This document shows, piece by piece, positions 1 through 45,990 of a DNA stretch of 45,990 nt. The position numbers and the translations under genes are program-made. Below the pieces are notes generated by a model. That model had not been told where the DNA came from. It was given only the letters and a program-made list of their open reading frames with translations, and did no database searches. Numbering within the stretch: position 1 is the first letter of the stretch; every line of letters starts with the position of its first letter. The stretch lies in assembly GCA_031398365.1 (NCBI GenBank), contig JANNND010000325.1:1-45990 (forward strand), in the 5' to 3' direction. Source of the stretch: Blastocatellia bacterium. Lineage in GTDB: Bacteria > Acidobacteriota > Blastocatellia > RBC074.

Positions 1-124
1 TTTGCGCTTCCTGCAAGGCGCGGTCAGTTGGTTCCTGGGCAAGCGTCAGGCGCAGGAAGGGCGCGGCGAGGAATAAAGCCAGGACCAGCAATACGCTGCT
101 GAGTGAAGTGACTCGCACGCCCAT
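1..124 (-). CDS. 5' end of an exported-protein gene that runs off the window (partial)
   Basis: Absent from the ORF track because there is no stop in the window. An ATG at 124-122 (reverse complement) opens a frame that stays open to base 1: MGVRVTSLSSVLLVLALFLAAPFLRLTLAQEPTDRALQEAQ. It is signal-peptide-like (basic n-region, hydrophobic core, LA-QE). No clear Shine-Dalgarno (SD). Confidence 0.35.
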   Translation of the reverse strand, partial: MGVRVTSLSSVLLVLALFLAAPFLRLTLAQEPTDRALQEAQ

Positions 125-6700: not shown

Positions 6701-7689
6701 CCCTTGAGCGGAACTGCATTGTAGTGCAAATAAATGCCGCCTGCGCCGCCGCCACCAAAGGTATAAATGCCACCGGCTTCTTTCAGCCACGCCGGAGTAT
6801 CAGGGAAGTTCCAATTCCCCTGGTGGCGCGCAAGATAATAGTCCACAGCAACGTGCCAATCCCCGCTCGCATGCACACCGATAGCAAGTTCTGGCGCTGC
6901 GACCTGCTGATTGGGTTTCAGATAAGAAATCCAAAATCCGGCCACTTCTTCAGTGGAAAGCGTGAGTTGGATTGGAGCGGTGTCCTGATCCAAATCACCA
7001 CTGACATCGGCAAAAAAGATGCCGCCTCGACCATCCTGATCATACAGGCTAGCTACCTCCATTGTGTTGGCTCCTGCTTCCGCAGGCAACCCAACGCCAA
7101 TATTGAATGGCATACCAAACTTGATGCCCGGACGCAAAGGAGAAACGGAACCGATTTCTTGTGGGATCGTCCCCATCATCCGATCAGGATTGGCTGTTCT
7201 TACTCCCTTGATTTTGGGAAGTACGGTGCGCAGGAAAAGTTTATTACTGCTCAGGTTAGTAGCACTAAAGCGCATAATCACCGCTGCACCATCAGGCGCG
7301 AGACTAAGCTCAAGGCGAAATCGCAACGGTTCGTTTATGGCTCTGGCGATAATGATTAAATTTGCATCACCCCCACTCACCTGCTCCACCTGCGTGCCAT
7401 TATTACTTTGGTAGGCAGTGCCATTATTGACCGCATACTCAAACAGCGAAGAAGGCGCTGGTAGATGATCCACGTTGCTAACCCGGTTATAAATCCGCGT
7501 GACCGTGATGCCATTGCTCAAATTAAGTTCAAGCAACATCTTTTCATTTTGGACGATTTGCCTGGAATTTCCGGCAGGCGCCGCTTGCACAGAAACGCTG
7601 GCAGCGGGTAATAACAGAATAATAATTGACAGGCCGATCCCTGCTATCCAGTAGAAAGTTGTATGCTCGAAGCTATTTGTTTTGCGCAT
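3736..7689 (-). CDS. large secreted multidomain protein (1317 aa): N-terminal unknown region, TIM-barrel glycoside-hydrolase-like region, concanavalin/LamG-like (DUF1080-type) domain, and 7 C-terminal LGFP repeats
   Basis: Signal peptide MRKTNSFEHTTFYWIAGIGLSIIILLLPAASVSVQA and SD AAGGAA. The central segment ...GADGVMLDSWGW... looks like a glycosidase barrel, but the family is not assignable by eye. The ...GRFGLTNYKSTAKFDDLVIQQW end is typical of DUF1080/LamG-like jelly rolls. The C-terminus has LGFP-type repeats. Confidence 0.8.
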   Translation of the reverse strand: MRKTNSFEHTTFYWIAGIGLSIIILLLPAASVSVQAAPAGNSRQIVQNEKMLLELNLSNGITVTRIYNRVSNVDHLPAPSSLFEYAVNNGTAYQSNNGTQVEQVSGGDANLIIIARAINEPLRFRLELSLAPDGAAVIMRFSATNLSSNKLFLRTVLPKIKGVRTANPDRMMGTIPQEIGSVSPLRPGIKFGMPFNIGVGLPAEAGANTMEVASLYDQDGRGGIFFADVSGDLDQDTAPIQLTLSTEEVAGFWISYLKPNQQVAAPELAIGVHASGDWHVAVDYYLARHQGNWNFPDTPAWLKEAGGIYTFGGGGAGGIYLHYNAVPLKGRINHFSELPKLLQEARALGSNVVYLHDYWDGPADREYFFKGEYLPRADLGGGAALAEAIQAIHNTQDQNYETGGKVILYLEPFITYPRTLIRRAQDKGKAWSSFDHLGGNLKDRFDRQVYGEYVDNGVKLHDSYQIMNAAFVPWQDEVVKIAQRLVGEYGADGVMLDSWGWQTNWAIQTRAEGIKYNPADFSQAALRLVDRVRAAVRAINPEAVVISETTSGPIGRHVDGGFSGDFEFDWLKNANQEKIIASPVRYAMPNVNYYSNGRTLGELHQVYAAGHNLALCSPCIPRGTNNNFMDINRSHIKNLLDTRRTYKDALIYGQQQYQPKPNRPEVVAYYYQGSQNQIITLVNTSQYSQNVTLTLDNDPSDSPWIDVLTQETFTSSGQSLPVRIGGGNSTQGLRVLQRVTLSDSPAPTIYPVTQFDPTIFSGFKGNWRNSWTPYDGNWSMLGASMVSSAPQSAATLTYDKQTGANFTFSATVMVISGAEAGVSFRLGSEFKLANKVEDVREDYTKGYDVILSQAEGRIKIARRPYQVISQYQMPVWTNHPYQLMVIANGARIQVFLDGNRVMDVLDKSPYASGRFGLTNYKSTAKFDDLVIQQWTPPTLPHLLYGDIRDKWEELGADQSPLGMPTTSETAAARGGRYNEFEAGFIYWKSPLQTYAVYGMIGEKWNALGREQGYGYPISDEQSAPDGIGFYNDFENGGAIYALPGTGAFEIHGDIRLKWLGLGGVKSPLGYPTSDEKAAGNGWRYNEFQYGFIYWKSRTQTFALYGAIGAKWNALGRGPGFSYPIGDEKPLPGGGWGQDFENGGSIYVLPGKSAFEVHGSIKAKWLSLGGVSSALGYPVSDERPAAGGGRVSHFQYGSIYFTPQGQLFVVLGKIGEKYNQLGREAGFGYPADEERRTPDGGYYQHFQNGGSIYYKSSVGAYEVHGAIREKWAGMGWERSFLGYPLTDEIATPDGRGRMNRFQGGTIYWYPNTGAYATR
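3739..4857 (-). repeat. 7 tandem LGFP-type repeats (53-54 aa each), coding
   Basis: Repeats start GDIRDKWEELG, GMIGEKWNALG, GDIRLKWLGLG, GAIGAKWNALG, GSIKAKWLSLG, GKIGEKYNQLG and GAIREKWAGMG. Each contains (L/F)G(Y/M)P ... F(E/Q)xG.IY ... G, matching the Pfam LGFP repeat pattern as I remember it. Confidence 0.75.
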
Positions 7690-7798
7690 TTTGATTCCTT
7701 TTGTGACTTAACATTTTGGGTCAGCATTGCTGTATCCACCTGAATCCAGCTTAAGTCTTGTACTTGCTTTCATTGCCTACTGGTCAAAATGGCAAAAG

Positions 7799-7806
7799 CA
7801 TGTCGC
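7799..7806 (-). promoter_or_regulatory. copy 2 of the GCGACATG motif, 110 nt upstream of the LGFP-hydrolase start
   Basis: Minus-sense context: GCGCAGAAATTTGTCGCCGACGCGACATGCTTTTGCC. It also contains the GTCGC-CGAC-GCGAC mini-palindrome. Confidence 0.3.
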
Positions 7807-7862
7807 GTCGGCGACAAATTTCTGCGCTTCATTCTTATTTTGGTTTATTTTTATGGATGAGT

Positions 7863-10800
7863 TTACCGACGCCCGTCAAGATTTGCCCATTCGCCGGATT
7901 GAATGAAACTGGCCCAGTAAAAGGGATGCTGGCGCAGTTTGTTTTGCAGCATTTGCAGTTGCGTTTGGCGCAACGCTTCGCCCCTGCCCTGCCCCTGTTG
8001 CAAGGCTTTGTAATAACCAATCATTAACTCGCTGGTGCTGGTATCGGACACGGGCCAGAGGCTCATCAATTGTGTTTCCGCGCCCGCCAACACCAGCGCG
8101 CGGCGCAGGCCATAGACACCATCGCCGTTTTTGATTTCTCCAACGCCGGTGTCGCACGCCGAAAGCACAACCAACTTTGTACCCCACAAATCCAGGCTAG
8201 CTGCTTCCATGGCGGTCAATATGCCATCGTCGTTTCCGCTCTTGCCTTGATTCGCGCCCGCCAGTGCGAGGCCAGAACGCAGCAGCGGGTTACTGACGTT
8301 TGCGACCCATTTGCCCAACCGCAGGTCGTCGCTGCCGCGTGTTGCAGGCGTAGCAGCTTCGTCGTCCTGCAAAAAGAAACCGTGGGTTGCGATGTGCAAA
8401 ATGCGCGGGCCACTGAGTTGACGCAGCGCGGCTTCCGTCGCTTGGGTTTTGGATAAAACAACACTGCTTGGCATTAAATCTTTAATTGCGCGCGCTTCGG
8501 CTCTGGTTTTGGCGAGGGGCGCAAACAACACTTTGGATTCATCCAGCCGCACACTTCCTTTGCGACTGGCATCATTGCCGGCAATAACGACAGGGGGATC
8601 ACCGAATTCAGGATCGGCAACAATGACAGCCTCACTATGACTCTCACGCGGTGTTTGTAACCGCACCAAATCGCGACCACTGGTTAAATAGGTAATCGAA
8701 TAGCGCTCAACCAAATATTTGGTTTGCTCATCCACCAGCGCGATGAACGGAATCAGATTCAACGCGCCATCGGGGGAAATCAACAAGTGTTTTGCTTCGC
8801 CCAGTAGCGGTCGGAGCGGCTTCATCACTTTGTCATCCACCGCGCGTGCCAGGCGTTGTACATCGGCGCGCTGTGGATTGCGCAACGATTGTCGCCAAGC
8901 CGTAATCGTGCGCTCAAGGACTGCGGCTGCGCCCAAATCCACCCACTGCGGTTTGTTGTTCGCAGTCAATAAATAGGCAGCGTAATGTGCGGCGGCAGGC
9001 TTGTGGGTCTTGGCATCAAGCGGATTGAAAAGTGCGAATTCAATGAGCGTCGCGTCTTTCGGAAGCAAGTCCTGAATCGCAGCCAAGGTGATCGGCTGTG
9101 CTTGCAACCGAAATTCGGCGCTATGGTTGCTAAGTTCGATTTCAAGTTGTTCAGCAGCTTCTTCAAGCTGTTTAAGTTGCGCGCGATTCAAACTTGTCGG
9201 CGTGCTTGCTGCCTCTCGCAACGTCAGTGTCGCCATTCTGGAGCGCAGTTCTGCCAATTGACTAAGGCTTGCCTGATCCTGCGAATTCGCACGCCGACGC
9301 AGCGCGGCAACCGTATCGGTCAGCGCGTCCAACCCACGCCCCTTGCGGCGCAATAACGTAGTGAGGGCCAACTCCAAGGCCTGTTGATTCCGAGGTGCGG
9401 CTTGCGCGTGCAAGAACAACGCATTGTTCATGTCAGCAGAAAACAGTTGCAAGTAGCTGAGCTTTTGTCGCTCGGAGCCGAACAGCAAATTGCGAGTGAG
9501 ATTGCGTTCGCTGATTTCGAGGGCCTGCGTCAATTGTGTGATGCTTTGTTGTGTCTCGCCCCGCGCCCACGAAACGCTGGCCAAACGGCTTAAGGTGCGC
9601 GCTAAGTCGGGCGCATCGGCATTGAGGGTTTTCTGTTGAATCCTGAGTGCGCGGTTGTACAGGGCTTCGGCTTCAGCAGTCTTGCCTTGATGGTTGTACA
9701 AGCCCGCCAAACCTTCCAACGCCTGGACGACATACGGATGTTCACCGCCCACCGTTTTTTCCAGCAGCGTCAACGCGCGATTGTACAGGCGTTCGGACTG
9801 TGCCGACTTGCCTTCCAATTCATACAGCTTCGCAAAACTGAAAAGGGACAGCGCAGTTTCAGGATGCTCGCCATAAATCTTTTCGCGCATCGTCAGCGCC
9901 CGCTGATGCAGCGTTTCGGACTCCGCATAATTTCCCTGCTCCCGGTAAATCCCGGCGAGCAAATTATAAGAGCGCGCCAAATCGGGATGTTCATTGCCAA
10001 AGGCTTTTTCCTTGATCGCGATGGCGCGCAGTTGCAAGGGGATAGCGTTGAGCCAATCCCCTTTGTCAGAGTACAGCGCGGCCAGATTGCTGAGCGTCGT
10101 CGCGAGAAATGGATGATCCTTACCAAGCGCCTTTTCCCGAATCGCAATCGCACGTTGATAGAGCGGTTCAGCCTTCACATAGTCGCCCATTTCGTTGTAC
10201 AGCAGGGCGAGATTGTTCAGCGTTTCGGCCACTTCGGGATGCGTATTGCCCAAGACTTTTTCTTTGATCGCCAAGGTGCGCAAATGTAGCGGTTCCGCCT
10301 TCGGATACTCGCCCATATCCCGATACAACCCCGCCAAATGGCCGAGCGATTCGGCGATTTCATAATGCTCCGCGCCGAAGTTTTTTTCTCGTATAGCCAG
10401 AGCGCGCCGATAGAGAGATTCGGCTTGCGTGTAATCACTTTTCTGCTGATAGGCTCCCGCCAAGTTGCTCAAGGCGTGCGCGATTTGCGGATCGTCTGGC
10501 CCGAGCAGCTTGGTATAGATTGCCAGCGCTCGTTGATAGAAAGGTAAGGCACGATCATATTCACCCAAATTCAAATACGTCACCGCCAGATCATTCACCG
10601 ATTCGGCAACGTCCAAATGTTCCTGGCCGAAAGCTTTTTCGCGCACAGCCAAGGCCCGCAGATAGATTGGCTCCGCCGTTTTAAATTCGCCCTTATCAAA
10701 ATAGACACCAGCTAAAAAATTCAACGCCGCGCCCACGTCCACGTGCTCAGGGCCAAGAATCTTTTCGCGGAGCGCGACAACTTTTTCGGCGAGCGGTAAG

Positions 10801-11285
10801 GCCTCATCCGCTTTGCTTTGCGTAGCCAACAATAAGGCTTCGCCCGCCATTTTGCGTGCCTCGACCAAGGGGCGATCATGGGGCAAGGCAGTGCGCAACT
10901 CGGCGAGTTTGATTTCGTATTTGCCCGGTGCAACGTCCTTTTCAAGCGAATGAACCTCGACGCGGTAATTGCCCGCGGCCTCTGTGACCCAAGCCAAAAC
11001 CTCTTCGCCTGACGATCCATTAGGGCTGTCCACTACGATCAGCTTTTTGCCATCGGGCGCGATCAGGGTGACGGCAACGTCAATGCCGCGTTGTTTGATG
11101 ATGATGTGCAGATATTGCGCAGCCAGCAGGGAAACCTGATAGCCGTGCGCTTGTCCGCCTGTTAGCTCGCGCTCCATTGGAACACCAATGGACAAAGGAC
11201 GCGTCTCGGTCGTTGTTTGGGTACTTACTAACAACGCAAACAAAATGCTTAAAATCATCTTGACCTTCTTTTCATGCTGAGCCAT
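7863..11285 (-). CDS. secreted TPR-repeat / CHAT-domain (caspase-like) protease, about 1140 aa
   Basis: N-terminus MAQHEKKVKMILSILFALLVS (signal-like), then a beta-sandwich-like domain. About a dozen TPR_10/12-type repeats follow (AL..LA.LY...G.Y..AEPLY.RALAI.EK.LG.(D/E)HP). The C-terminal CHAT domain has catalytic-type His (ILHIATHGFF) and Cys (LVVLSACDTGVG). The start is uncertain: ATG 11285 has no SD, ATG 11258 has AAGAAGG, and the track start 11342 adds a non-signal extension. Confidence 0.85.
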   Translation of the reverse strand: MAQHEKKVKMILSILFALLVSTQTTTETRPLSIGVPMERELTGGQAHGYQVSLLAAQYLHIIIKQRGIDVAVTLIAPDGKKLIVVDSPNGSSGEEVLAWVTEAAGNYRVEVHSLEKDVAPGKYEIKLAELRTALPHDRPLVEARKMAGEALLLATQSKADEALPLAEKVVALREKILGPEHVDVGAALNFLAGVYFDKGEFKTAEPIYLRALAVREKAFGQEHLDVAESVNDLAVTYLNLGEYDRALPFYQRALAIYTKLLGPDDPQIAHALSNLAGAYQQKSDYTQAESLYRRALAIREKNFGAEHYEIAESLGHLAGLYRDMGEYPKAEPLHLRTLAIKEKVLGNTHPEVAETLNNLALLYNEMGDYVKAEPLYQRAIAIREKALGKDHPFLATTLSNLAALYSDKGDWLNAIPLQLRAIAIKEKAFGNEHPDLARSYNLLAGIYREQGNYAESETLHQRALTMREKIYGEHPETALSLFSFAKLYELEGKSAQSERLYNRALTLLEKTVGGEHPYVVQALEGLAGLYNHQGKTAEAEALYNRALRIQQKTLNADAPDLARTLSRLASVSWARGETQQSITQLTQALEISERNLTRNLLFGSERQKLSYLQLFSADMNNALFLHAQAAPRNQQALELALTTLLRRKGRGLDALTDTVAALRRRANSQDQASLSQLAELRSRMATLTLREAASTPTSLNRAQLKQLEEAAEQLEIELSNHSAEFRLQAQPITLAAIQDLLPKDATLIEFALFNPLDAKTHKPAAAHYAAYLLTANNKPQWVDLGAAAVLERTITAWRQSLRNPQRADVQRLARAVDDKVMKPLRPLLGEAKHLLISPDGALNLIPFIALVDEQTKYLVERYSITYLTSGRDLVRLQTPRESHSEAVIVADPEFGDPPVVIAGNDASRKGSVRLDESKVLFAPLAKTRAEARAIKDLMPSSVVLSKTQATEAALRQLSGPRILHIATHGFFLQDDEAATPATRGSDDLRLGKWVANVSNPLLRSGLALAGANQGKSGNDDGILTAMEAASLDLWGTKLVVLSACDTGVGEIKNGDGVYGLRRALVLAGAETQLMSLWPVSDTSTSELMIGYYKALQQGQGRGEALRQTQLQMLQNKLRQHPFYWASFIQSGEWANLDGRR

Positions 11286-11451
11286 TGGGCGGGGGAGAAG
11301 GCTGTGATTGTAATGCGTGAGAGTGCCGCTTTGCCAGCGCATGCGAAAAAATTAGCCCGGTTCAGAGGCTGACTCCAAACCAGGCTGAAAGATGAATTTC
11401 ACCGCGTATGCGATTTCTCCTTACACTCTCCACTGAGAAAAGGATCAAAAC

Positions 11452-34088: not shown

Positions 34089-37000
34089 TTACTTTACGCG
34101 GCGAATGCGATTGTTTTTAGCATCCACAAAGATGACTTCGCCGCTGGAGCTGACCGTGATGCCAACAGTTTGAACCATGTAGTTAATTGAAACTGTTGTA
34201 TCAATATCAATTGGGTCAGTATCTATATCAATGCGAGAACTGGTTGGATTCCCGCCATCTCCGGCAAAACCTCCCATGCTTGCCGTTCCGGCAAAACTGG
34301 TAGCCGTGCCACCAGCAATCGGAAGCTTGAGAATTTGCTGGGTTCCGCTATTCATTACATAAAGATTGTCAGAGGAATCCACCGCAATGTCCCGAGGCCG
34401 ATTGATGGCAATGGAACTGCCAACTGCCGCGAAGGCGCCACTGCCAGCCGCTGTTTCACGCAGCACTTGGCTGCTAGGGCCGGAGACTGCAATTAACAAT
34501 CTTCCTGAATTATCGAAGGCCAGCCCTGTATAGTCACTGGTTGCAGACAAAGTCAGGCTGGAAATAATACCGGTGCTACGCAGGATCTTCCGCACACGTC
34601 GGTTGTTGACATACGATTCAGACAGATAAATGTCTTTGCTTGTTGGATTAACTTCTACATCGGTGGTTCCCACCAGTTTTGCACTGGTCGCAATCCCGCC
34701 ATCCCCAATGCCAGACGGATCGGTGCTACCACCAGCAATCGTCTTGATTTCCCCTGGATTTACGGTAATGGCACCATAGAATGTCACTGCCGAATTGCTT
34801 AGATTCAAGAAGCGTAGTTTGCTTGTTTTTACTCCCATTGCGGTTGGTACGGATTTCCCGAAAGAATCGACAATGTAAAGCCCTTCCGAGGTCCACTTGA
34901 GCCCCTGCAAAGTATAGAAATACGCTAGGCTTGGATCTGTACTTTCATCATTGAGAGGATCAGTGCCATTTTTATTGATGCGGATGATACCATTCGCTGG
35001 CACACTTTGACCGAGGAGCGTTATAGGTGAACTTCCCCGATTAACAAAGCGTAAGGCACTGCCCCCGGAAACATTAGCTTCGGCAATGAATGCATTATTG
35101 TTGCCATCAAGGGCTATCCCTACCGGTGAAGCTAAAATCGCACTCGTTGCCAGACCACCATCATAAGGTTCCGGCAAACCAGAGCCAATGATCGTATTTC
35201 CTGTCCCTGGAGCGATGCTCACATTGGCCAGCGTCAAGGCACCACCACTGATGTTCAGATAGCGAATACGACTGCGACCATTACCAACCTGATCCAACAC
35301 AAATAGTCCATTGCTGTCACTACCCAGATTTAAGAGCGCCAGGCGGAAGTCAAATGTCATACTACTATTGGCCCCTCCATCTCCGCAGACAGAAGAAGAA
35401 TAGTCACATACAATTGCTGAGGTACCGGCAATTGCATTTACAGGGGGTGTATTGATGGTGCCCGTAGTAGTAGAAGCCGTTGCAGCAACAGTATCCGGGT
35501 TGTCTATTCTCACGATTGTATGATCATTACTGTTCGTGATGTAAAGGCTGCCACCCAACAAGGTCAAGCCGGACGGCATTGAATTCCCTGTTGGGACTAA
35601 GACGCCAGCATCAAATGTACCCAATTGAGTAACCAGTTGCATAACCCCTGATTGCACTCGCACAACACGACCGAAGCGGCTATCACTGATGTATACCGTA
35701 TTTCCATCATTACTGACGGTAATTGCCTGCGGCCCAGCCAGTGCGACCGCCGTAGCGCTAGGTGTTGCGCCTGAGGTCGGGTAAGGAAACGCTTGCCAAC
35801 TAAAAGGTCTTGGCGCGGAGGGACCACCGGCAAAAGTGGAAATTGCACCAGCAGGCGTTATCTTCAATATCTTCGAAGAAGTTCCATCTGCAACATATAG
35901 GTCTTTTGAGACAGGATTAACTGCAATCCCTCGCAGGTCCTCGCTCAAAGTGCTGCCTAGTTCGTCATACAAGGTTCCCACATTGCCAACCTGTACGAAT
36001 TTCGTTGCGCTAGCGATTAATTTAATAGGATTGGTATCCATACCAGGGGAAACGTTAATCCAGTTCACCATCTTAACCCCTGAACCAGCATTGGTAAAAA
36101 ACAAAACATTCTTGTCGGGGCTCAAGGCCAAGCCTGTAATTCCCAAAAGATCAATGCCAGCCATTGGGGTGTCATCGGGCGTGAGAATACCGGCCTCTGT
36201 TGGGCGACCAGAGGTAAGATTTTTAATTGAATTTGCTGGAACAGTAATACCAGCGATTTTGAGCGGGGCGTTCGTAGTATTGGCGAAGCGAATAAACCAG
36301 CCGCCTGCTGCCGCTGTCGTCTCAGCAATATACACACCACGTCCCGGATCCACCGCAGTCGCAATGGACTTAATCAGCGGTGCCTGATTGGCTTGGTTAC
36401 CATCGCCGTACAAGCCACCCGCAATTGTCGTGATGGTAGGATCAGAGGTAATAACAGTCTCATTACCGGTTGTATTTGCGGTGAAGGTTGTATTGGTTTT
36501 GGTGACTGAAGTAGTGCTGCGATATTGCAACCCGAATTTTGAACTATTATTGCTTTCTGAGTTGGTAAAGCTAAAGGTGTAATTAATGTTGTCAATAATT
36601 ACCTGTGCATTACCGGAAGGACTGTCGCCGCCATTGCGGACAGAGACAAAATTGAGAATAGAGCTACCGGCTGACGTAGACGAAAAGAACAGTCCGCCGA
36701 AGTTGCCGCCACCAGGAATTTTGTCAAAAACGATTCGTTGGGAAATGCCTGTATCAGCATCGGGAGACTGGCTATATCCGGCATATCCATTGGCCGCAAT
36801 GTTTCCGAATAAGCTCCCGTCCCCTGCTTTCAAATCCATCCCCGCGTCAAGCTGGATGATAGCATTTGGATTGATAGACAACTCTGCACCGGGAGAGCCA
36901 TTGGAATTCCCGACGATTGATGGATTGCCGCTCGCGCCACGAATTTGAATCGGGATGTCGCCTTGTCCAACCAACACACCCGAGCGAGTGAAATCATTAG

Positions 37001-38630
37001 CGGACGCATCAATTTGTACAGCATTGGTTCCGTTATTTCGGATGACGTTAGCAGATGAGAAGTAATAACTTTGATCTGGAACACGCGTATTTGCGTTGCT
37101 GGCATCCAAATCACCCATTCCACCGCCAGTTGAACCAACACCAAGTGCCGCATTTGCGCTCAGCAAAACGGCAACGCCAATATTGTTTTCAATGCGGGAC
37201 CGAGTAAATCCCGTGAAGAAGTCACCATTACCTGTGGCGCGTAAACCATGACCACCGCTGCGTCGCGAGATACTATCCGTAAAGCGCAAGGTTCTGCCCG
37301 AACCACTAATATTGATTTGTGCGCCACCACTGCCGCCACCGAACTCAATTACAGAGTTCTTAAAGGTAAGTTCACTGGTCGAGGCTGAGGTTGCATCAAT
37401 TCCGCCCCAGATAGTTGCGCCAGGCGAACGCGTAATAACAATCTGCGCAGGTGAAGTTGCTGGTACACCAGGAATTCCGCCATTTGCAGTCAAGCTGGCT
37501 CCGACCTGCAAAGTCACGCCATCATCCACATAAATCACAGTGCCGGGCAAAATTGCGCCGGAGATTGTCGCATTGGCGTTGATCCGATACGGGCCGATGT
37601 CGCTGAAGGAAGGGCTGGTTCCGGTATGGGCGCCATCAGGCACACCTGTCACGGTCAATCTGCCCTCCAAAGTGCTTGATCCAAGGCCGCCTGGGGTACC
37701 GCCGGAATTTGTGACGCGCACGCTGTAAATGCCCGGGACAGTGCTAACAGGTACGGTTGCGGTCAATTGTGAAGCAGAGATAACTGATGATGCCAGCGTT
37801 GCCACAACTGCACCGCTCGAATTCAGCAGCGTCACGGTTGGGGAGCTGAAACCTTGGCCATTGATTACAATGGTTCGGTCAACATCGTTCTGAATAGCAG
37901 CAGGTTCGACGCTTTCGGTGGCCACGCCGATATCGGCTACCAGCGTGTAGCGAAAATAGAAGCTTTGCAGTGAAGTGCTGGGAAAGGAGAATGACCAGAC
38001 TCTGGTTTGCGAAGAACTCGGATCAATATCGCCGTAGTCGCGCGAGACACCAAGCTTACCGTTGAGCGCCACTTGGCCGTCATTGAAGTAAGCGCTCGCG
38101 GTACTGGCTACACCACCACGAGAGTCTAGAAAGTCTGTAAAGATCAGACGTGTATTATAGAATTTCAGTGATCCGGTATTGTTAATCCGCATTTCCCCGG
38201 AAACAGTGTTCGAAGGTGCAGGCGGTTGACAAGGAACCGTCGCGCTCGGATTTGCACAAGAGCGGACAAAGGTACGAGTATGCGATCCGTCAGGCAAAGG
38301 TGTCGTGGCATCACTGCGTCCGAAGGCCTTGAAGGTTGCGTGGAGGTTGCCACTATTGGAATTCAATAGCGTCACCTTTTGTGTTTTGGCATCAAAAGTA
38401 CCCTCAAACACGCCGACGATCTTTTGCCTATTCGCGGTTCCAGCCGCTGGCACTCGGCCTACCTCACGATTTGCCGAGGCAGTTGAAGCAGCGAGGGCGG
38501 CGCGCGTGACGGCTACTTTTCGTAGCCCCGCAGCACCAACCATCACCAATAGGGTTGAGACCAATATAATAAGTGTTGTCGAGCGAAATGAATAACGCCC
38601 CAACCTAAACAAAAGTCCGCGACTAGACAT
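34089..38630 (-). CDS. giant exported protein (1513 aa): unknown N-terminal domain, IPT/TIG domain, right-handed beta-helix-like region, and multiple NHL-type beta-propeller repeats
   Basis: SD AAGGAG and an N-terminal anchor (TTLIILVSTLLVMVGAAG). The IPT-like segment is RTIVINGQGFSSPTVTLLNSSGAVVATL...TATVP..VPGIYSVRVTNSGG. A Gly/Asn/Ser-rich beta-helix-like middle follows. NHL-like units include GIAVNPVSKDLYVADGTSSKILKI, ITVSNDGNTVYISDSRFGRVVRV, GLTLLGGSLYITNSNDHTIVRI, DIAVDSSDNLYVMNSGTQQILKL and ITVSSSGEVIFVDAKNNRIRRV. Confidence 0.85.
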   Translation of the reverse strand: MSSRGLLFRLGRYSFRSTTLIILVSTLLVMVGAAGLRKVAVTRAALAASTASANREVGRVPAAGTANRQKIVGVFEGTFDAKTQKVTLLNSNSGNLHATFKAFGRSDATTPLPDGSHTRTFVRSCANPSATVPCQPPAPSNTVSGEMRINNTGSLKFYNTRLIFTDFLDSRGGVASTASAYFNDGQVALNGKLGVSRDYGDIDPSSSQTRVWSFSFPSTSLQSFYFRYTLVADIGVATESVEPAAIQNDVDRTIVINGQGFSSPTVTLLNSSGAVVATLASSVISASQLTATVPVSTVPGIYSVRVTNSGGTPGGLGSSTLEGRLTVTGVPDGAHTGTSPSFSDIGPYRINANATISGAILPGTVIYVDDGVTLQVGASLTANGGIPGVPATSPAQIVITRSPGATIWGGIDATSASTSELTFKNSVIEFGGGSGGAQINISGSGRTLRFTDSISRRSGGHGLRATGNGDFFTGFTRSRIENNIGVAVLLSANAALGVGSTGGGMGDLDASNANTRVPDQSYYFSSANVIRNNGTNAVQIDASANDFTRSGVLVGQGDIPIQIRGASGNPSIVGNSNGSPGAELSINPNAIIQLDAGMDLKAGDGSLFGNIAANGYAGYSQSPDADTGISQRIVFDKIPGGGNFGGLFFSSTSAGSSILNFVSVRNGGDSPSGNAQVIIDNINYTFSFTNSESNNSSKFGLQYRSTTSVTKTNTTFTANTTGNETVITSDPTITTIAGGLYGDGNQANQAPLIKSIATAVDPGRGVYIAETTAAAGGWFIRFANTTNAPLKIAGITVPANSIKNLTSGRPTEAGILTPDDTPMAGIDLLGITGLALSPDKNVLFFTNAGSGVKMVNWINVSPGMDTNPIKLIASATKFVQVGNVGTLYDELGSTLSEDLRGIAVNPVSKDLYVADGTSSKILKITPAGAISTFAGGPSAPRPFSWQAFPYPTSGATPSATAVALAGPQAITVSNDGNTVYISDSRFGRVVRVQSGVMQLVTQLGTFDAGVLVPTGNSMPSGLTLLGGSLYITNSNDHTIVRIDNPDTVAATASTTTGTINTPPVNAIAGTSAIVCDYSSSVCGDGGANSSMTFDFRLALLNLGSDSNGLFVLDQVGNGRSRIRYLNISGGALTLANVSIAPGTGNTIIGSGLPEPYDGGLATSAILASPVGIALDGNNNAFIAEANVSGGSALRFVNRGSSPITLLGQSVPANGIIRINKNGTDPLNDESTDPSLAYFYTLQGLKWTSEGLYIVDSFGKSVPTAMGVKTSKLRFLNLSNSAVTFYGAITVNPGEIKTIAGGSTDPSGIGDGGIATSAKLVGTTDVEVNPTSKDIYLSESYVNNRRVRKILRSTGIISSLTLSATSDYTGLAFDNSGRLLIAVSGPSSQVLRETAAGSGAFAAVGSSIAINRPRDIAVDSSDNLYVMNSGTQQILKLPIAGGTATSFAGTASMGGFAGDGGNPTSSRIDIDTDPIDIDTTVSINYMVQTVGITVSSSGEVIFVDAKNNRIRRVK

Positions 38631-41028: not shown

Positions 41029-41069
41029 AAGCCGCAAGTCAGCCATCTGGCTTGCGGCTTTTTCGTTTT
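41029..41069 (+). terminator. rho-independent terminator of htrA
   Basis: AAGCCGCAAG-(12 nt)-CTTGCGGCTT followed by TTTCGTTTT. Confidence 0.85.
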
Positions 41070-41267
41070 AGTGACATTCTTTCGCTCCACAACTTTCATT
41101 CTGGCAAAGTTCCTTGAAGCAATCAAAATCTGCGTGCAACACTCGCGTGCGAAACTTGCGGCGTTGAAGCTATGAGGCCTTAAGTCATAGACAAATTTTG
41201 CACGTTTTATCTTTCACTGCCTCGTTAAGTCGTTGCAGTGTTTATTATTTTAGGAGGAGAAAAACGA

Positions 41268-41882
41268 ATGGCTAACTTATCTGGCACTGCTTATGCTGCC
41301 AAAGATTACAACTTAAGTGGTTTGACAGGCATTTCTGATGAAACACTCGAAATTCATTTCGCCTTGTACAAAGGCTACGTCACCAACACCAATTTACTAA
41401 ACGAAAAATTGTCCGAGATGATTAAAGGCGGACAGGCTGGAACGCCCGGTTATGCCGAACTCACGCGCCGGCTCGGCTTTGAATACAATGGTATGGTGCT
41501 GCACGAATATTACTTCGGCAATATGAAAAAAGATGGCGGTGGCGACCCCGCGTCCGATTCGTCTTTCAAAGCGGCGATTGAAGCAAATTTTGGTGATGTT
41601 GAGACGTGGAAAAAAGATTTCGTCAGCGTCGGCACAATGCGCGGTGTCGGTTGGGCCGTGTGTTATCAAGACCCCAATACCGGACGACTTTCCAATCACT
41701 GGATCACGCTGCACGAAGAAGGCAATATCGCGGGCTTTAACCCATTACTCGTGTTGGATGTTTGGGAACATGCATTCTTTCGCGATTACAAACCGGCTGA
41801 GCGCCCGAAGTACATTGAGGCTTTTTTCAGCAATCTGGATTGGGCGGCCTGTGACGGACGCATTGTGGCACCAAAGTCATAG
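41268..41882 (+). CDS. Fe/Mn superoxide dismutase family protein, divergent N-terminal motif (204 aa)
   Basis: SD AGGAGGAG before ATG 41268. LEIHFALYKGYV compares with canonical (I/L)xxHHxKHHxxYV; also YNGMVLHEYYF, GVGWAV and LDVWEHAFFRDY (canonical D-x-W-E-H-A-Y-Y). Confidence 0.7.
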   Translation: MANLSGTAYAAKDYNLSGLTGISDETLEIHFALYKGYVTNTNLLNEKLSEMIKGGQAGTPGYAELTRRLGFEYNGMVLHEYYFGNMKKDGGGDPASDSSFKAAIEANFGDVETWKKDFVSVGTMRGVGWAVCYQDPNTGRLSNHWITLHEEGNIAGFNPLLVLDVWEHAFFRDYKPAERPKYIEAFFSNLDWAACDGRIVAPKS

Positions 41883-41885
41883 CGC

Positions 41886-41914
41886 TTGACAGTGTGGCAT
41901 CCATTCCCCATAAT
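41886..41914 (+). promoter_or_regulatory. sigma70-type promoter TTGACA-17-CATAAT for the pheA-aroF leader
   Basis: TTGACA 41886-41891, a 17-nt spacer, then CATAAT 41909-41914. It sits immediately after the SOD-family stop codon. Confidence 0.6.
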
Positions 41915-41934
41915 GCCGCGCGTCATCATCAAAT

Positions 41935-42045
41935 ATGAACAACCCGATTCTCACAACCCAATCGCTTAATAACGTTGCCGCTTGGCGATTTTATTTTAGC
42001 TTTTACTTTAGCAACTACAGCAGGGTTGTGAGGCTCGGAACTTAA
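41935..42045 (+). CDS. candidate aromatic-amino-acid leader peptide (36 aa): MNNPILTTQSLNNVAAWRFYFSFYFSNYSRVVRLGT
   Basis: Not in the ORF track because it is shorter than 60 aa. Hand translation from ATG 41935 to TAA 42043-42045. Codons 17-28 are W R F Y F S F Y F S N Y. It lies between a good promoter and pheA. No obvious SD. Confidence 0.5.
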   Translation: MNNPILTTQSLNNVAAWRFYFSFYFSNYSRVVRLGT

Positions 42046-42075
42046 AGCAAAGTTCAAAAATCAAGAGCCTGCAAA

Positions 42076-42117
42076 AAAGGCCCTGCATTCAATTTGAATG
42101 TGGGGCCTTTCAGTTTT
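42076..42117 (+). terminator. candidate attenuator/terminator hairpin immediately before the pheA ATG
   Basis: aaaggccctgcattcaa / ttgaatgtggggccttt (42076-42092 / 42094-42110; about 15 bp including two G-U pairs), followed by cagtttt and ATG 42118. Confidence 0.5.
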
Positions 42118-42978
42118 ATGAGTCATTCTATCCCCCCAACATGTGTCGCATTTCAAGGTGAACTAGGCGCATTCAGCACGGACGCCGCCCACAAATTGCT
42201 GGGTGACCGGATTCAACTTATCCCGTGCGAAACGTTCGACTTGATGTTCGCCGCCGTCGAAGCCAGGGACGCAGATTATTGTCTGGCACCATTGGAAAAT
42301 TCGCTTTTTGGTTCGGTCTATCAAAACTATGATTTGTTACTCAAGCATGATTTTCAAATTGTGGGCGAGACGACACTGCGAATTGTTCACAGCTTGATTG
42401 TTGCCCCGGAAACAAAATTGGAACACGTGCGACTGGTCTATTCGCACCCGGTCGCGCTCGGTCAATGCCGCAATTTCCTGCACGCAAATCCAGGCATGAA
42501 ACCAATTGTGGCCTATGACACAGCAGGCAGCGTTAAGCTCATTATGGAAAGCCGCGAAGCCGGAGCAGCCGCCATCGCTAGTGCTTCCGCAGCAGAAGTT
42601 TACGGCGCAGAAGTGATCGTTGTTGGCATTGAGGACGATCCTCAAAACTTCACCCGGTTCTCGTTGCTGGCACGCGCAGAAGAAGCTGCGGCGCACCCGC
42701 CGCCCGAAATTGAAAGCGCCAAAACTTCCATCGTCTTCGCGCTCGAAAACAAAACTGGCTCACTGTATCGCGCGATGGCAGTGTTTGCACTGCGTGATTT
42801 AGACCTTACGAAAATCGAATCACGTCCCCTGATCGGACGTCCCTGGGAATACAGTTTTTACTTGGATTTTATTGGTCATACGGAGGAAAAGCGTGTGCAA
42901 AATGCGCTTGCTCATCTGGCCGAATTTGCCGCGAATGTCAAAGTTCTGGGCTGTTATAAAGCCGCTACCAATTCGTAG
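42118..42978 (+). CDS. pheA: prephenate dehydratase (PDT + ACT domains, monofunctional)
   Basis: VAFQGELGAFS..., the TKIESRP motif, and a C-terminal ACT region. I prefer ATG 42118 because the TTG at 42094 lies inside the hairpin. Confidence 0.9.
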   Translation: MSHSIPPTCVAFQGELGAFSTDAAHKLLGDRIQLIPCETFDLMFAAVEARDADYCLAPLENSLFGSVYQNYDLLLKHDFQIVGETTLRIVHSLIVAPETKLEHVRLVYSHPVALGQCRNFLHANPGMKPIVAYDTAGSVKLIMESREAGAAAIASASAAEVYGAEVIVVGIEDDPQNFTRFSLLARAEEAAAHPPPEIESAKTSIVFALENKTGSLYRAMAVFALRDLDLTKIESRPLIGRPWEYSFYLDFIGHTEEKRVQNALAHLAEFAANVKVLGCYKAATNS

Positions 42979-42979
42979 T

Positions 42980-43029
42980 ACAGACTATTTGTCTGTCGCT
43001 GCCTGAACCCTTACAGACCAATGTCTGTA
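42980..43029 (+). promoter_or_regulatory. two similar short palindromes, ACAGAC-tattt-GTCTGT and TACAGAC-caat-GTCTGTA, between pheA and aroF
   Basis: 42980-42996 and 43012-43029, read directly. Confidence 0.6.
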
Positions 43030-43053
43030 CTACATTTTAAGGAGAGAAACATC

Positions 43054-44079
43054 ATGATCGTTGCAATGATTGCAGGTGCTTCCGAAGCACAAATTGAACA
43101 TATCTGTGAGCGCATCCGCCAATTTGGTTATACGCCACACGTGATTCGCGGTGAAGAACGAACCGTAGTCGCTGCTATTGGTAAGGGCGATAAGAAAGAG
43201 CATATCGAATCGCTCAAATCTGCGGATGGCGTCGAAGATGCGTTTCCTATTTTGCAGCCCTTCAAATTGGTCAGCACTGAAGTCAAAAAAGAAAGATCAA
43301 TCATCAAGGTCGGCGACATCTCTATCGGCGATGGCGGTTTGGTCGTGATGGCTGGCCCGTGTTCGGTCGAAACCCGCGAACAGTTACTGTCCACCGCTGA
43401 ATGCGTCGCCAAAGCAGGCGCACAGATTCTGCCTGGCGGCGCGTACAAACCGCGCACCTCGCCGTATGAATTTCAGGGCTTGGCAGAAGAGGGATTGAAG
43501 TTGTTAGCCGAGGCGCGCGAAAAAACCGGCCTTAAAGTTGTCACCGAAATTTTGAATGCGGAAGATGTGGATTTGGTTGAAGAATACGCAGACATTCTGC
43601 AAGTTGGCGCGCGCAACATGCAGAACTTCGAACTGCTGAAAAAGCTCGGCAAAGTCAGTAAACCCGTGATGCTCAAACGTGGCTTGTCTGCCACGATCAA
43701 AGAATTTCTCCTGTCAGCAGAGTATATCGTTTCCAATGGCAATCCGAACGTGATGTTGTGCGAACGTGGCATCCGCACCTTTGAAACCGCCCTGCGCAAC
43801 ACCTTGGATTTAGGTGTCGTACCGTTGCTCAATGAATTGACTCACTTACCTGTTGTCATTGATCCAAGTCACGGAACCGGCAAGCGCAGCCTTGTCCCGC
43901 CTGTTGCCAGAGCTGCGGTGGCCATTGGTGCTGATGCGATTATGACTGAGGTGCATCCGTTTCCTGAACAAGCCTGGTCAGATGGCCCACAATCGCTTCG
44001 CTTCGAAGAGTTCGATCAAATGATGGCCGACATTCAACCTTACGTGAAGCTACGTCAGCGCTCCTCTGCCGCCGCATAA
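43054..44079 (+). CDS. aroF: 3-deoxy-7-phosphoheptulonate (DAHP) synthase, type I-beta, with an N-terminal ferredoxin-like/ACT-like regulatory domain
   Basis: SD AAGGAGAG before ATG 43054. The N-terminal [43 protein letters not shown] resembles the Thermotoga-type regulatory domain. [16 protein letters not shown] and DPSHGTG. Confidence 0.9.
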
Positions 44080-44986: not shown

Positions 44987-45262
44987 TCACCCACCAGCAA
45001 TCGCCGGGACGATTGAAATTTCTGACTGCTCATTGACAGGCGTTTGTAGCTGGTTCAAGAAGCGAATATCTTCGCCGTCCACATAAACATTGATGAACCG
45101 GCGCAAATCACCATTTTCTTCACAAAGGCGCGCTTTGATGCCTGGATATTGCGTTTCGAGTTGCTGAAACACTTCGCTAATCGTCGAACATTGCACACTG
45201 ACCAGTTCGACGCCATCGGTAAATTTGCGCAGCGGAGTTGGGATAATTACTGTTTGTGCCAT
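44987..45262 (-). CDS. MoaD/ThiS-family ubiquitin-like sulfur carrier protein (CysO-like), C-terminal GG
   Basis: [17 protein letters not shown]......[15 protein letters not shown]...[12 protein letters not shown] has the same pattern as M. tuberculosis CysO (…HRFVNIYVNDEDVRF…VTILPAVAGG). Confidence 0.85.
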
Positions 45263-45280
45263 TGGGGTCTCCTCGAAAAT

Positions 45281-45990
45281 TTATGAACCGGTCGCTGCCG
45301 ACTTGTTTTTGAAAGCCTTTGCTTCAAAGGCCGCGAGTTTCGGCTCAATCGCCTCCAACTCTTCCAACGTCAACGCTTCGGTCGTCTTCAAACCGTTGCC
45401 GGTAATCGCAATGACAATTGTGTCCTTTGCGGTCAAGCGACCTTGCGCAATCAACTTCTGCGTTGTAGCAATTGTCACGCCGCCAGCGGTTTCGGCGAAA
45501 ATGCCTTCTGTTTCCGCCAGCAATTGAATCGCCTTGACGATTTCGACATCGTCTACATCTTCCGACCAGCCGCCCGAATTGGTAATCACGCCCGTCGCAA
45601 AATAACCATCGGCTGGATTGCCAATTGCCAAGGACTTCGCAATAGTATTCGGTTTGACGGGGCGAATGTCACGCGTGCCAGCTTTAACTGCGGCGGCGAT
45701 TGGATTGCAACCTGTCGCCTGCGCGCCAAAGAAACGTGTTTGTTTTTCCTCGACCAACCCAAGCTTTGCCAGTTCGCCAAAGCCCTTGTAAATCTTTGTA
45801 ATCAACGAACCGCCCGCCATCGGCACAACGACCGCGTCTGGTGTGCGCCAGCCTAAGCTCTCCGCGATTTCATAACCAAATGTCTTTGAGCCTTCGCCAT
45901 AAAATGGGCGCAGGTTCACGTTGACGAATCCGATGTTGTGGCGACCTGCGATTTCGCTGCACAGGCGGTTCACATCGTCGTAATTCCCTT
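45281..45990 (-). CDS. thrC: threonine synthase-like PLP enzyme, C-terminal about 236 aa (the 5' part lies outside the window)
   Basis: The frame is open to the window edge (…GNYDDVNRLCSEIAG…). NLRPFYGEGSKTFGYEIAESLGW..PDAVVVPMAGGSLI...AKSLAIGNPADG...VKAIQLLAETEGIFAETAGG...ITGNGLK is the ThrC-type pattern. Confidence 0.8.
   Translation of the reverse strand, partial: GNYDDVNRLCSEIAGRHNIGFVNVNLRPFYGEGSKTFGYEIAESLGWRTPDAVVVPMAGGSLITKIYKGFGELAKLGLVEEKQTRFFGAQATGCNPIAAAVKAGTRDIRPVKPNTIAKSLAIGNPADGYFATGVITNSGGWSEDVDDVEIVKAIQLLAETEGIFAETAGGVTIATTQKLIAQGRLTAKDTIVIAITGNGLKTTEALTLEELEAIEPKLAAFEAKAFKNKSAATGS

Follow-up and report, generated by a model that had tools for sequence, protein, structure and literature searches.

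The question raised by this locus is what the DNA between a superoxide dismutase (SOD) gene and pheA does in a 45,990-nucleotide (nt) stretch from a Blastocatellia bacterium (contig JANNND010000325.1 of assembly GCA_031398365.1, positions 1 to 45,990; hereafter the window, or the 46-kb window). In this stretch pheA is followed by a gene for a DAHP synthase. An earlier note, made from the sequence alone, had proposed that an unannotated open reading frame (ORF) and competing hairpins upstream of the two genes form a ribosome-mediated attenuator. Having compared the locus with its relatives, we find it quite probable that the element is a ribosome-mediated (leader-peptide) transcription attenuator of the pheA-DAHP synthase operon. 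The signal sensed would be the supply of charged tRNA-Phe and, in the window's clade, probably that of tRNA-Tyr too. All features of the element lie on the forward strand.

The comparison draws on 80 pheA loci from a genome scan with PheA, nearly all of them in Blastocatellia metagenome-assembled genomes (MAGs) and two in genomes labelled Thermoanaerobaculia. We sorted these loci into three clades, termed near, mid and far, the window's own subclade sitting in the near clade. According to its PheA relatives the window belongs to Blastocatellia (Acidobacteriota), the nearest being a MAG with 95% PheA identity. About 70 of the 80 loci have a Phe-rich mini-ORF upstream of pheA. In the window this unannotated ORF runs from the ATG at 41935 through 36 codons to the TAA at 42043-42045 and encodes the peptide MNNPILTTQSLNNVAAWRFYFSFYFSNYSRVVRLGT. 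Its regulatory codon run, F19-Y-F-S-F-Y-F25, occupies 41989-42009, with Phe encoded by TTT at 41989, 41995, 42001 and 42007. Further aromatic codons stand beside it at W17 (41983) and Y28 (42016), giving four Phe, three Tyr and one Trp within 12 codons; under the window's own codon usage, the chance of at least seven aromatic codons in a given stretch of 10 codons is 2.5e-6. The Phe/Tyr run is made of two TTTTAYTTTAGC units, and the duplicated copies, TTTTATTTTAGC and TTTTACTTTAGC, lie at 41989-42012. The start, length and stop of the ORF, its residues 17-28 and the duplicated unit are all as the earlier note had described them.

Among the relatives, leaders range from 31 to 67 amino acids. 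Their N-terminal halves are unrelated and variable in length, whereas the Phe run and its spacing are fixed. In 53 of 69 loci, 36 nt separate the last aromatic codon from the end of the stop codon. The frame of the Phe run is open by construction, and the informative tests are the presence of an upstream in-frame ATG and the closure of the other frames. The run is preceded, 10 or more codons upstream, by an in-frame ATG in 69 of 72 loci; over the same span, the remaining two frames stay open in only 6/69 and 1/69 loci. Near-clade leaders read ...AWRFYFSFYFSN(Y/D)SGVVRLEA, mid-clade leaders ...FGFSFYFYFSRSRGVGSSLA and far-clade leaders ...FRFSFFSFST..GAGGAMV. Phe at alternate positions is the invariant feature of all three clades. 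The leader had been put forward as rich in Phe, Tyr and Trp; of these Phe is conserved, Tyr is confined to the near and mid clades, and Trp amounts to a single codon. The pairing of pheA with the DAHP synthase gene is kept in all clades, also where the leader lacks Tyr. The two loci labelled Thermoanaerobaculia (L074 and L079) have a shorter leader, MTQRAIRFFAFTS.IGAGL.GV, with a matching antiterminator/terminator pair upstream of pheA, and the family therefore extends past Blastocatellia; in both, pheA has no following DAHP synthase gene within the available sequence. The conserved C-terminal tail of the peptide overlaps RNA segment 2 (see below), and because of this coincidence its conservation is best read as a constraint on the RNA. 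Leader peptides from the clades gave no match in Pfam or NCBIfam, and a protein search with a mid-clade leader (L022) as query gave only two matches, both annotated as 'hypothetical protein'. When all the loci and the window were scanned for further leader-like mini-ORFs, with Trp, His, Cys or Met as the enriched residue, only noise was returned.

Downstream of the leader lies a hairpin resembling an intrinsic terminator (segments 3:4; 42076-42117 including its tail), with arms at 42076-42091 and 42095-42110 and a loop at 42092-42094. The earlier note had placed it correctly ahead of the pheA ATG at 42118 and had estimated about 15 bp; we count 16 pairs. The hairpin has a predicted energy of -24.4 kcal/mol and the tail CAGTTTTATG, and its U-tract, TTTCAGTTTT, spans 42108-42117. 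The 46-kb window contains four hairpins with at least 14 pairs and a T-rich tail: the leader hairpin and three others, all located at gene ends. Of the 78 loci with enough upstream DNA, 72 have a strong GC-rich hairpin that carries a T-rich tail. In an alignment of 51 sequences, 95.9% of cells in the terminator stem are paired and seven pairs show compensatory change (65 cells); none of 500 shuffles reaches the observed pairing, and slid controls do not come close.

Could this hairpin act on translation instead? Under purely translational control, the 42076-42110 hairpin would occlude the pheA start without terminating transcription, and translation of the leader or stalling on it would open or close the region. 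In line with this, the pheA ATG follows the hairpin by 6-9 nt in the near clade (7 nt in the window), no Shine-Dalgarno (SD) sequence is visible there, and the U-tract is interrupted. However, across the loci the distance from hairpin to pheA start varies from 2 to 88 nt. In about 45 relatives it is at least 20 nt (20-88 nt), and several of these have a GGAG-type SD between hairpin and pheA, an arrangement in which the start cannot be masked. Because of this spacing, often with a separate SD after the hairpin, we do not regard the hairpin as a general mask of the ribosome-binding site. Moreover, the T-rich tail always accompanies the hairpin, and since the gene-end terminator at 41029-41060 of the window has a similarly interrupted tail, TTTCGTTTTA, the interruption is a local style. 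The original proposal had itself raised three caveats, namely the missing SD before the leader, the interrupted U-tract and possible translational control. All three describe the window correctly, but with separate SDs before pheA in relatives, similar U-tracts at gene ends and a GGAG SD before some far-clade leaders they mostly resolve toward transcriptional control. Thus, purely translational control seems to us improbable, although in the window's subclade occlusion of the pheA start may add a translational layer.

The structure competing with the terminator is an antiterminator formed by segments 2 and 3. Segment 2 (42020-42036) has overlapping roles: 42020-42027 pairs with segment 3 (42079-42086), which is within the 5' arm of the terminator, 42023-42032 pairs with segment 1, and 42031-42036 is the 5' strand of an inner helix. 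Helices 1:2 (41950-41959 with 42023-42032) and 2:3 had been predicted from the window and are present at these positions. Two further helices had been missed, the inner helix 42031-42036:42065-42070, with GAGCCT at 42065-42070 as its 3' strand, and the apical helix 42038-42043:42050-42055. They lengthen the antiterminator, its upper part spanning 42038-42070. The whole structure (fold of 42013-42091) has -26.0 kcal/mol compared with -24.4 for the terminator. The apical loop of the antiterminator holds the leader stop codon, which comes 11 nt after segment 2. The fold of the leader RNA as a whole has z = -6.65 against dinucleotide shuffles.

In every clade the antiterminator strand is complementary to the 5' arm of the terminator and starts about 9 nt after the last Phe codon. 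The pairs themselves differ: the window has GCAGGG:CCCTGC and the near clade GCGGGG:CCCCGC, the mid clade uses AGAGGGG:CCCCTC and the far clade GGAGCGGG:CCCGCTCC. When near and mid clades are taken together, 83.4% of the cells of helix 2:3 are paired, compared with 36-65% when the strands are slid, 21 cells show changes on both sides, and none of 500 shuffles reaches the observed score. The covarying alignment columns are 53:128 (33 AU, 12 CG) and 54:127 (44 GC, 4 AU, 3 GU). RNAalifold applied to the near clade from segment 2 to segment 3 returned both the outer and the inner helix, with one inner pair varying between UA and GC. An analogue of the inner helix in the mid clade is GTTCGTT:AACGAAC, also with the stop codon in its loop. 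In the full-length mid-clade alignment RNAalifold recovered the terminator alone, because the variable middle region is misaligned. The proposal had hinged on conservation in related genomes, and the Phe-rich mini-ORF, the terminator and a covarying antiterminator are indeed all kept.

The element also has a promoter of its own. The sigma-70-type promoter at 41886-41914 consists of TTGACA (41886-41891), a 17-nt spacer and CATAAT (41909-41914), as the earlier note had read it. With 11 of 12 consensus positions it is the top promoter-like match within the window, every other reaching at most 10/12. It is invariant across the near clade, and TTGACn-16..18-nATAAT was found upstream of the leader in 65 of 71 loci. 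Transcription is predicted to start near 41921, leaving a 5' untranslated region (UTR) of about 14 nt. Leader ATGs in the near and mid clades have no SD; some far-clade leaders have a GGAG SD. Directly after the -10 hexamer is a GC-rich discriminator, GCCGCGCGT (41915-41923), and this or close variants of it occur in all three clades. Such a discriminator is unusual at a promoter for amino-acid biosynthesis and may provide an extra, stringent-response-type layer of control. Departures from the common upstream region were also seen. In L022 (about 205-265) the promoter and 5' UTR are replaced by a short tandem repeat, ATTCGACCCGATTGT in three copies, and in L037 the usual promoter and 5' UTR are replaced by AGACTAGC in four copies. 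Mid-clade loci conserve a small hairpin, CATAAAnnnnnnTTTATCA, located after the -10 box and before the leader ATG (alignment A2, columns about 55-70); the window's clade lacks it.

Weak in situ evidence comes from two independent metatranscriptomes, in which the leader is seen to be transcribed: the contigs belong to a relative about 94% identical and extend over 41883-42070 in one and 41910-42069 in the other. Neither pheA nor the DAHP synthase gene was found in these two metatranscriptomes, even at 80% likeness, which hints that leader RNA is more abundant in situ than operon mRNA. Both leader contigs end at 42069/42070, that is, at the 3' base of the inner antiterminator helix and before the A-rich linker and the terminator. 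These ends could reflect a processed or trimmed RNA end or a mere assembly break.

From these elements, which are conserved and covary in helices 2:3 and 3:4, we infer leader translation, ribosome stalling and efficient termination, combined as follows. Transcription would begin near 41921 at the strong sigma-70-type promoter, and translation of the 36-codon leader would proceed before RNA polymerase has left the leader region. With Phe-tRNA plentiful, the ribosome would reach the stop codon at 42043 and cover segment 2 together with the inner-helix strand (about 42026-42054). Segments 3 and 4 would then pair, and the 16-bp hairpin with its U-tract would terminate transcription before pheA. 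With Phe-tRNA scarce, the ribosome would stall at the alternating UUU codons (41989-42009) and leave segment 2 free to pair with the emerging segment 3. The resulting extended antiterminator (42020-42027:42079-42086, 42031-42036:42065-42070 and 42038-42043:42050-42055; -26 kcal/mol) would block the terminator, so that polymerase enters pheA. If the leader were not translated at all, segment 1 (41950-41959) would sequester segment 2, and termination would be the default.

A further hairpin stands at the entrance to the regulatory codons. The small hairpin GTTGCC-GCTT-GGCGAT, followed by UUUAUUUU, lies at 41974-41989, its last nucleotide being the first of the Phe19 codon. Flagged as terminator-like, it is found in most near-clade loci, its 3' arm GGCGAT being invariant and its 5' arms differing; the predicted fold in L009 and L010 differs from that of the other near-clade loci. 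It is tempting to speculate that the hairpin and UUUAUUUU may be an RNA polymerase pause signal synchronising ribosome and polymerase, or else a weak terminator, and we treat it as a candidate for either.

The role of segment 1 was examined by minimum-free-energy folds of the nascent RNA with a 29-nt ribosome mask, and its partners were sought in folds of the RNA made before segment 3. RNAduplex comparisons, with shuffles, between long 5' regions and the segment 2 zone had given sprawling duplexes and uninformative z-scores, and the folds of the RNA made before segment 3 took their place. Of the 42 mid-clade loci, 10 give an antiterminator when no ribosome is present, 36 when one ribosome occupies a Phe codon and 12 when the ribosome stands at the stop codon. 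Counted from the start of the Phe run, segment 2 finds its partner at -8 to +20 in the mid clade and in many loci of the far clade; a mid-clade example is GGCCCTTCT, covering codons W-P-F-S-F. In other words, segment 1 of the mid clade is placed over the first Phe codons, which is the classical design. A long-range pairing of GGCUnAC, in codons of the N-terminal region, with GUnAGCC before the stop codon is a further possibility in the mid clade, where only about 72% of it is paired. In the window, segment 1 is CTCACAACCC at 41950-41959, within codons 6-9 ('LTT'), and forms the 5' strand of the anti-antiterminator helix 1:2. This helix, of 10 bp, is part of the minimum-free-energy fold. It also appears in the near-clade RNAalifold consensus, where the sole changes are C>U substitutions that keep G-U pairs, one of them non-synonymous. 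In the simulation for the window, the antiterminator forms only when segment 1 is masked, with seven of its eight pairs. With a ribosome at the stop codon it is abolished in the simulation, in agreement with the earlier claim that a ribosome finishing the peptide masks segment 2.

A number of observations speak against attenuation of this kind or limit what can be drawn from the comparison. The most serious concerns segment 1: in the window 30 nt separate it from Phe19 downstream (29-38 nt in the subclade as a whole), which puts it outside the footprint of a single stalled ribosome, and in the simulation for the window one stalled ribosome leaves helix 1:2 intact and yields no antiterminator. 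Near-clade loci as a group behave inconsistently under the ribosome mask. The window leader lacks an SD, its 5' UTR is only about 14 nt long, and the U-tract of its terminator is interrupted. The covariation is largely between clades and thus reflects few independent events, and the far clade is nearly invariant in segments 2-4, for which reason it was not counted for covariation. As for the transcripts, the leader contigs have a depth of about 2 and one of them spans the junction of SOD and leader, so that the signal could be read-through from SOD; Logan contigs, moreover, break for assembly reasons, in DNA runs too, and contig ends are not RNA ends. Finally, the organism of the window is known from metagenomes alone.

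The attenuator logic of the earlier note is conserved and supported by the comparison, but its statement that a stalled ribosome leaves segment 2 free needs an extra assumption in the window's subclade. Here segment 1 would presumably be kept off segment 2 during a stall either by steric exclusion or by a second, queued ribosome centred on segment 1. The idea of a queue comes from the position of segment 1, about one ribosome length upstream of the first Phe codon. If it is true, only a second, collided ribosome would cover segment 1 and free segment 2, and read-through would require both a shortage of Phe-tRNA and a high flux of translation initiation on the leader. The full proposal, in which the attenuator of the subclade senses a ribosome queue and the element is the first described leader-peptide attenuator family of Acidobacteriota (Blastocatellia and Thermoanaerobaculia), responsive to Phe and Tyr, is one that we consider rather unlikely to hold in all its parts. 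The placement of segment 1 in the subclade is nonetheless the one non-classical feature, and it could lift the element beyond the textbook class.

If not a ribosome, might a ligand or a protein operate the same terminator and antiterminator? A riboswitch, a T-box-like element or a TRAP/PyrR-like target would make the ORF incidental. The terminator/antiterminator architecture is common to all classes of attenuation, and the leader ATGs of the near and mid clades lack an SD, both of which would suit such a switch. At the gathering score, no Rfam family, T-box and riboswitch families included, was matched in the whole window, and a search of 41850-42200 at E <=10 gave no Phe_leader match. The candidate that did appear, the trpB motif (RF04312), reached a weak 27 bits (E about 0.06), where the gathering score is 59. 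Its alignment is carried by the terminator stem, with a largely non-canonical P1. This motif is known from Firmicutes and Fusobacteria and has no leader ORF (PMC11109978); it shares with our element a hairpin and an intrinsic terminator upstream of amino-acid genes, and we judge the two unrelated. The 5' half of the leader, where an aptamer might be expected, is conserved in neither sequence nor length, which argues against one. In addition, the kept in-frame ATG (69/72) and the rarely open other frames (6/69 and 1/69) are hard to reconcile with an incidental ORF, as are a conserved codon run for exactly the amino acid of the operon and a stop codon fixed inside the antiterminator. A ligand- or protein-binding switch is therefore very improbable in our view. 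A functional hydrophobic micropeptide followed by an ordinary terminator, for example that of the SOD gene, without any sensing, is hardly credible: the peptide is aromatic and hydrophobic, and the SOD gene, which lacks its own terminator, stops 4 nt short of the -35 box and is joined to the leader by one metatranscriptome contig, but SOD is upstream in the near clade only while leader and hairpin accompany pheA in all clades with their own conserved promoter, the peptide is not conserved outside the Phe run except for the tail that coincides with segment 2, and a terminator between a promoter and its only downstream genes is sensible only if conditional.

Leader-peptide attenuation is documented almost exclusively in Proteobacteria, Actinobacteria and a few other groups. 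In E. coli the pheL leader has 15 amino acids, fewer than the 36 of the window or the 31-67 of the relatives. Our element shows neither sequence nor structure homology to pheL. Its Phe codons alternate (F-x-F-x), with Tyr interleaved in the window, in contrast to the FFF runs of pheL; the operon of the window additionally includes a DAHP synthase, and its pheA is monofunctional. The two nevertheless have much in common. Like the pheL-pheA attenuator (Rfam Phe_leader; Gavini & Pulakat; PMC3082878), the element combines a short ORF containing a Phe run upstream of pheA with a terminator, an alternative pairing that uses the 5' arm of this terminator and a stop codon positioned such that a ribosome finishing there would block the antiterminator. 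Gamma-proteobacteria are the known hosts of pheL, and the only possible cases elsewhere are in Bacteroides and Desulfobacterium (PMC3082878). With the E. coli trpL attenuator the element shares four segments (1:2, 2:3, 3:4), a predicted default of termination if the leader is untranslated and a stop codon beside segment 2. As in trpL, segment 1 of the mid clade overlaps the regulatory codons. Unlike in trpL, segment 1 of the window's subclade is about 30 nt upstream of the first regulatory codon, and the antiterminator of the window is an extended hairpin in three parts, whose apical loop contains the stop codon. Leader-peptide attenuators of Actinobacteria and Bacteroidetes (PMC1262725; Naville & Gautheret, PMC2965389) are likewise predictions from comparative genomics outside the proteobacteria. 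Attenuators without assigned functions have been predicted in Acidobacteria (PMC2965389), and we found no description of a Phe leader in Acidobacteria in the full-text literature, subscription-only papers lying outside the search. Therefore, the element appears new to the phylum Acidobacteriota, its mechanism class is the textbook one, and it would work like pheL and trpL without being homologous to them.

The genes around the element are as follows. pheA (42118-42978) encodes a prephenate dehydratase with a C-terminal ACT region (NF008865, 233.7 bits against a cut-off of 219; PF00800, E = 1.8e-58). The product has no chorismate mutase domain and is thus monofunctional. The second gene of the operon (43054-44079) encodes a type I-beta DAHP synthase (NF006421, 482.9 bits) with an N-terminal ferredoxin-like regulatory domain, matching both PF18152 and PF00793. 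The name aroF used for this gene in the earlier note has to be abandoned, the product not being of the E. coli AroF type. Its start is most likely 43054, preceded by an AAGGAG SD at 43039-43044. In nearly all loci it follows pheA. The spacer between the two genes (42979-43053 in the window) is highly variable among L002, L006, L007, L022, L027 and L061. In the window it contains two copies of the palindrome ACAGAC-N3/4-GTCTGT, and in relatives it forms long hairpins from lineage-specific short tandem repeats or is reduced, in some loci, to just 10-20 nt and an SD. These spacer hairpins look like insertions resembling repetitive extragenic palindromes rather than conserved regulators. Upstream of the leader, the Fe/Mn SOD gene occupies 41238-41882; SOD transcripts would extend into the leader and end at the attenuator hairpin.

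Elsewhere in the window, the minus strand at 44987-45973 holds two neighbouring genes. One, for a MoaD/SAMP1-like small protein (57 bits against a 60-bit cut-off), is directly downstream of the other, for a pyridoxal-phosphate-dependent (PALP) enzyme that continues past the window end, and the pair resembles a sulfur-carrier-dependent biosynthetic pair of the Cys/Thr type. Large genes lie on the same strand at 3736-11342 and 34089-38630, including those for a 1317-amino-acid protein with seven LGFP repeats and a 1159-amino-acid TPR-CHAT protein as well as an ORF of 1513 amino acids; strong terminators are found at 3713-3666 and 11386-11354. The DNA runs that contain the DNA of the window are freshwater-sediment metagenomes.

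To our knowledge, Acidobacteriota are an abundant but poorly cultured phylum of soils and sediments whose regulation is almost uncharted. The element described here would give this phylum a concrete regulatory RNA for aromatic amino-acid synthesis. In these bacteria, Phe supply is predicted to co-regulate pheA and DAHP synthase, the entry enzyme of the common pathway. The approximately 70 sequences would provide a seed alignment for a new RNA family and would improve the annotation of leader ORFs that are at present missing or labelled 'hypothetical'. They would also form a natural series of variants for the evolution of attenuators, in which Phe-only leaders can be set against those with Phe and Tyr codons, and a segment 1 lying on the regulatory codons against one lying a ribosome length upstream.

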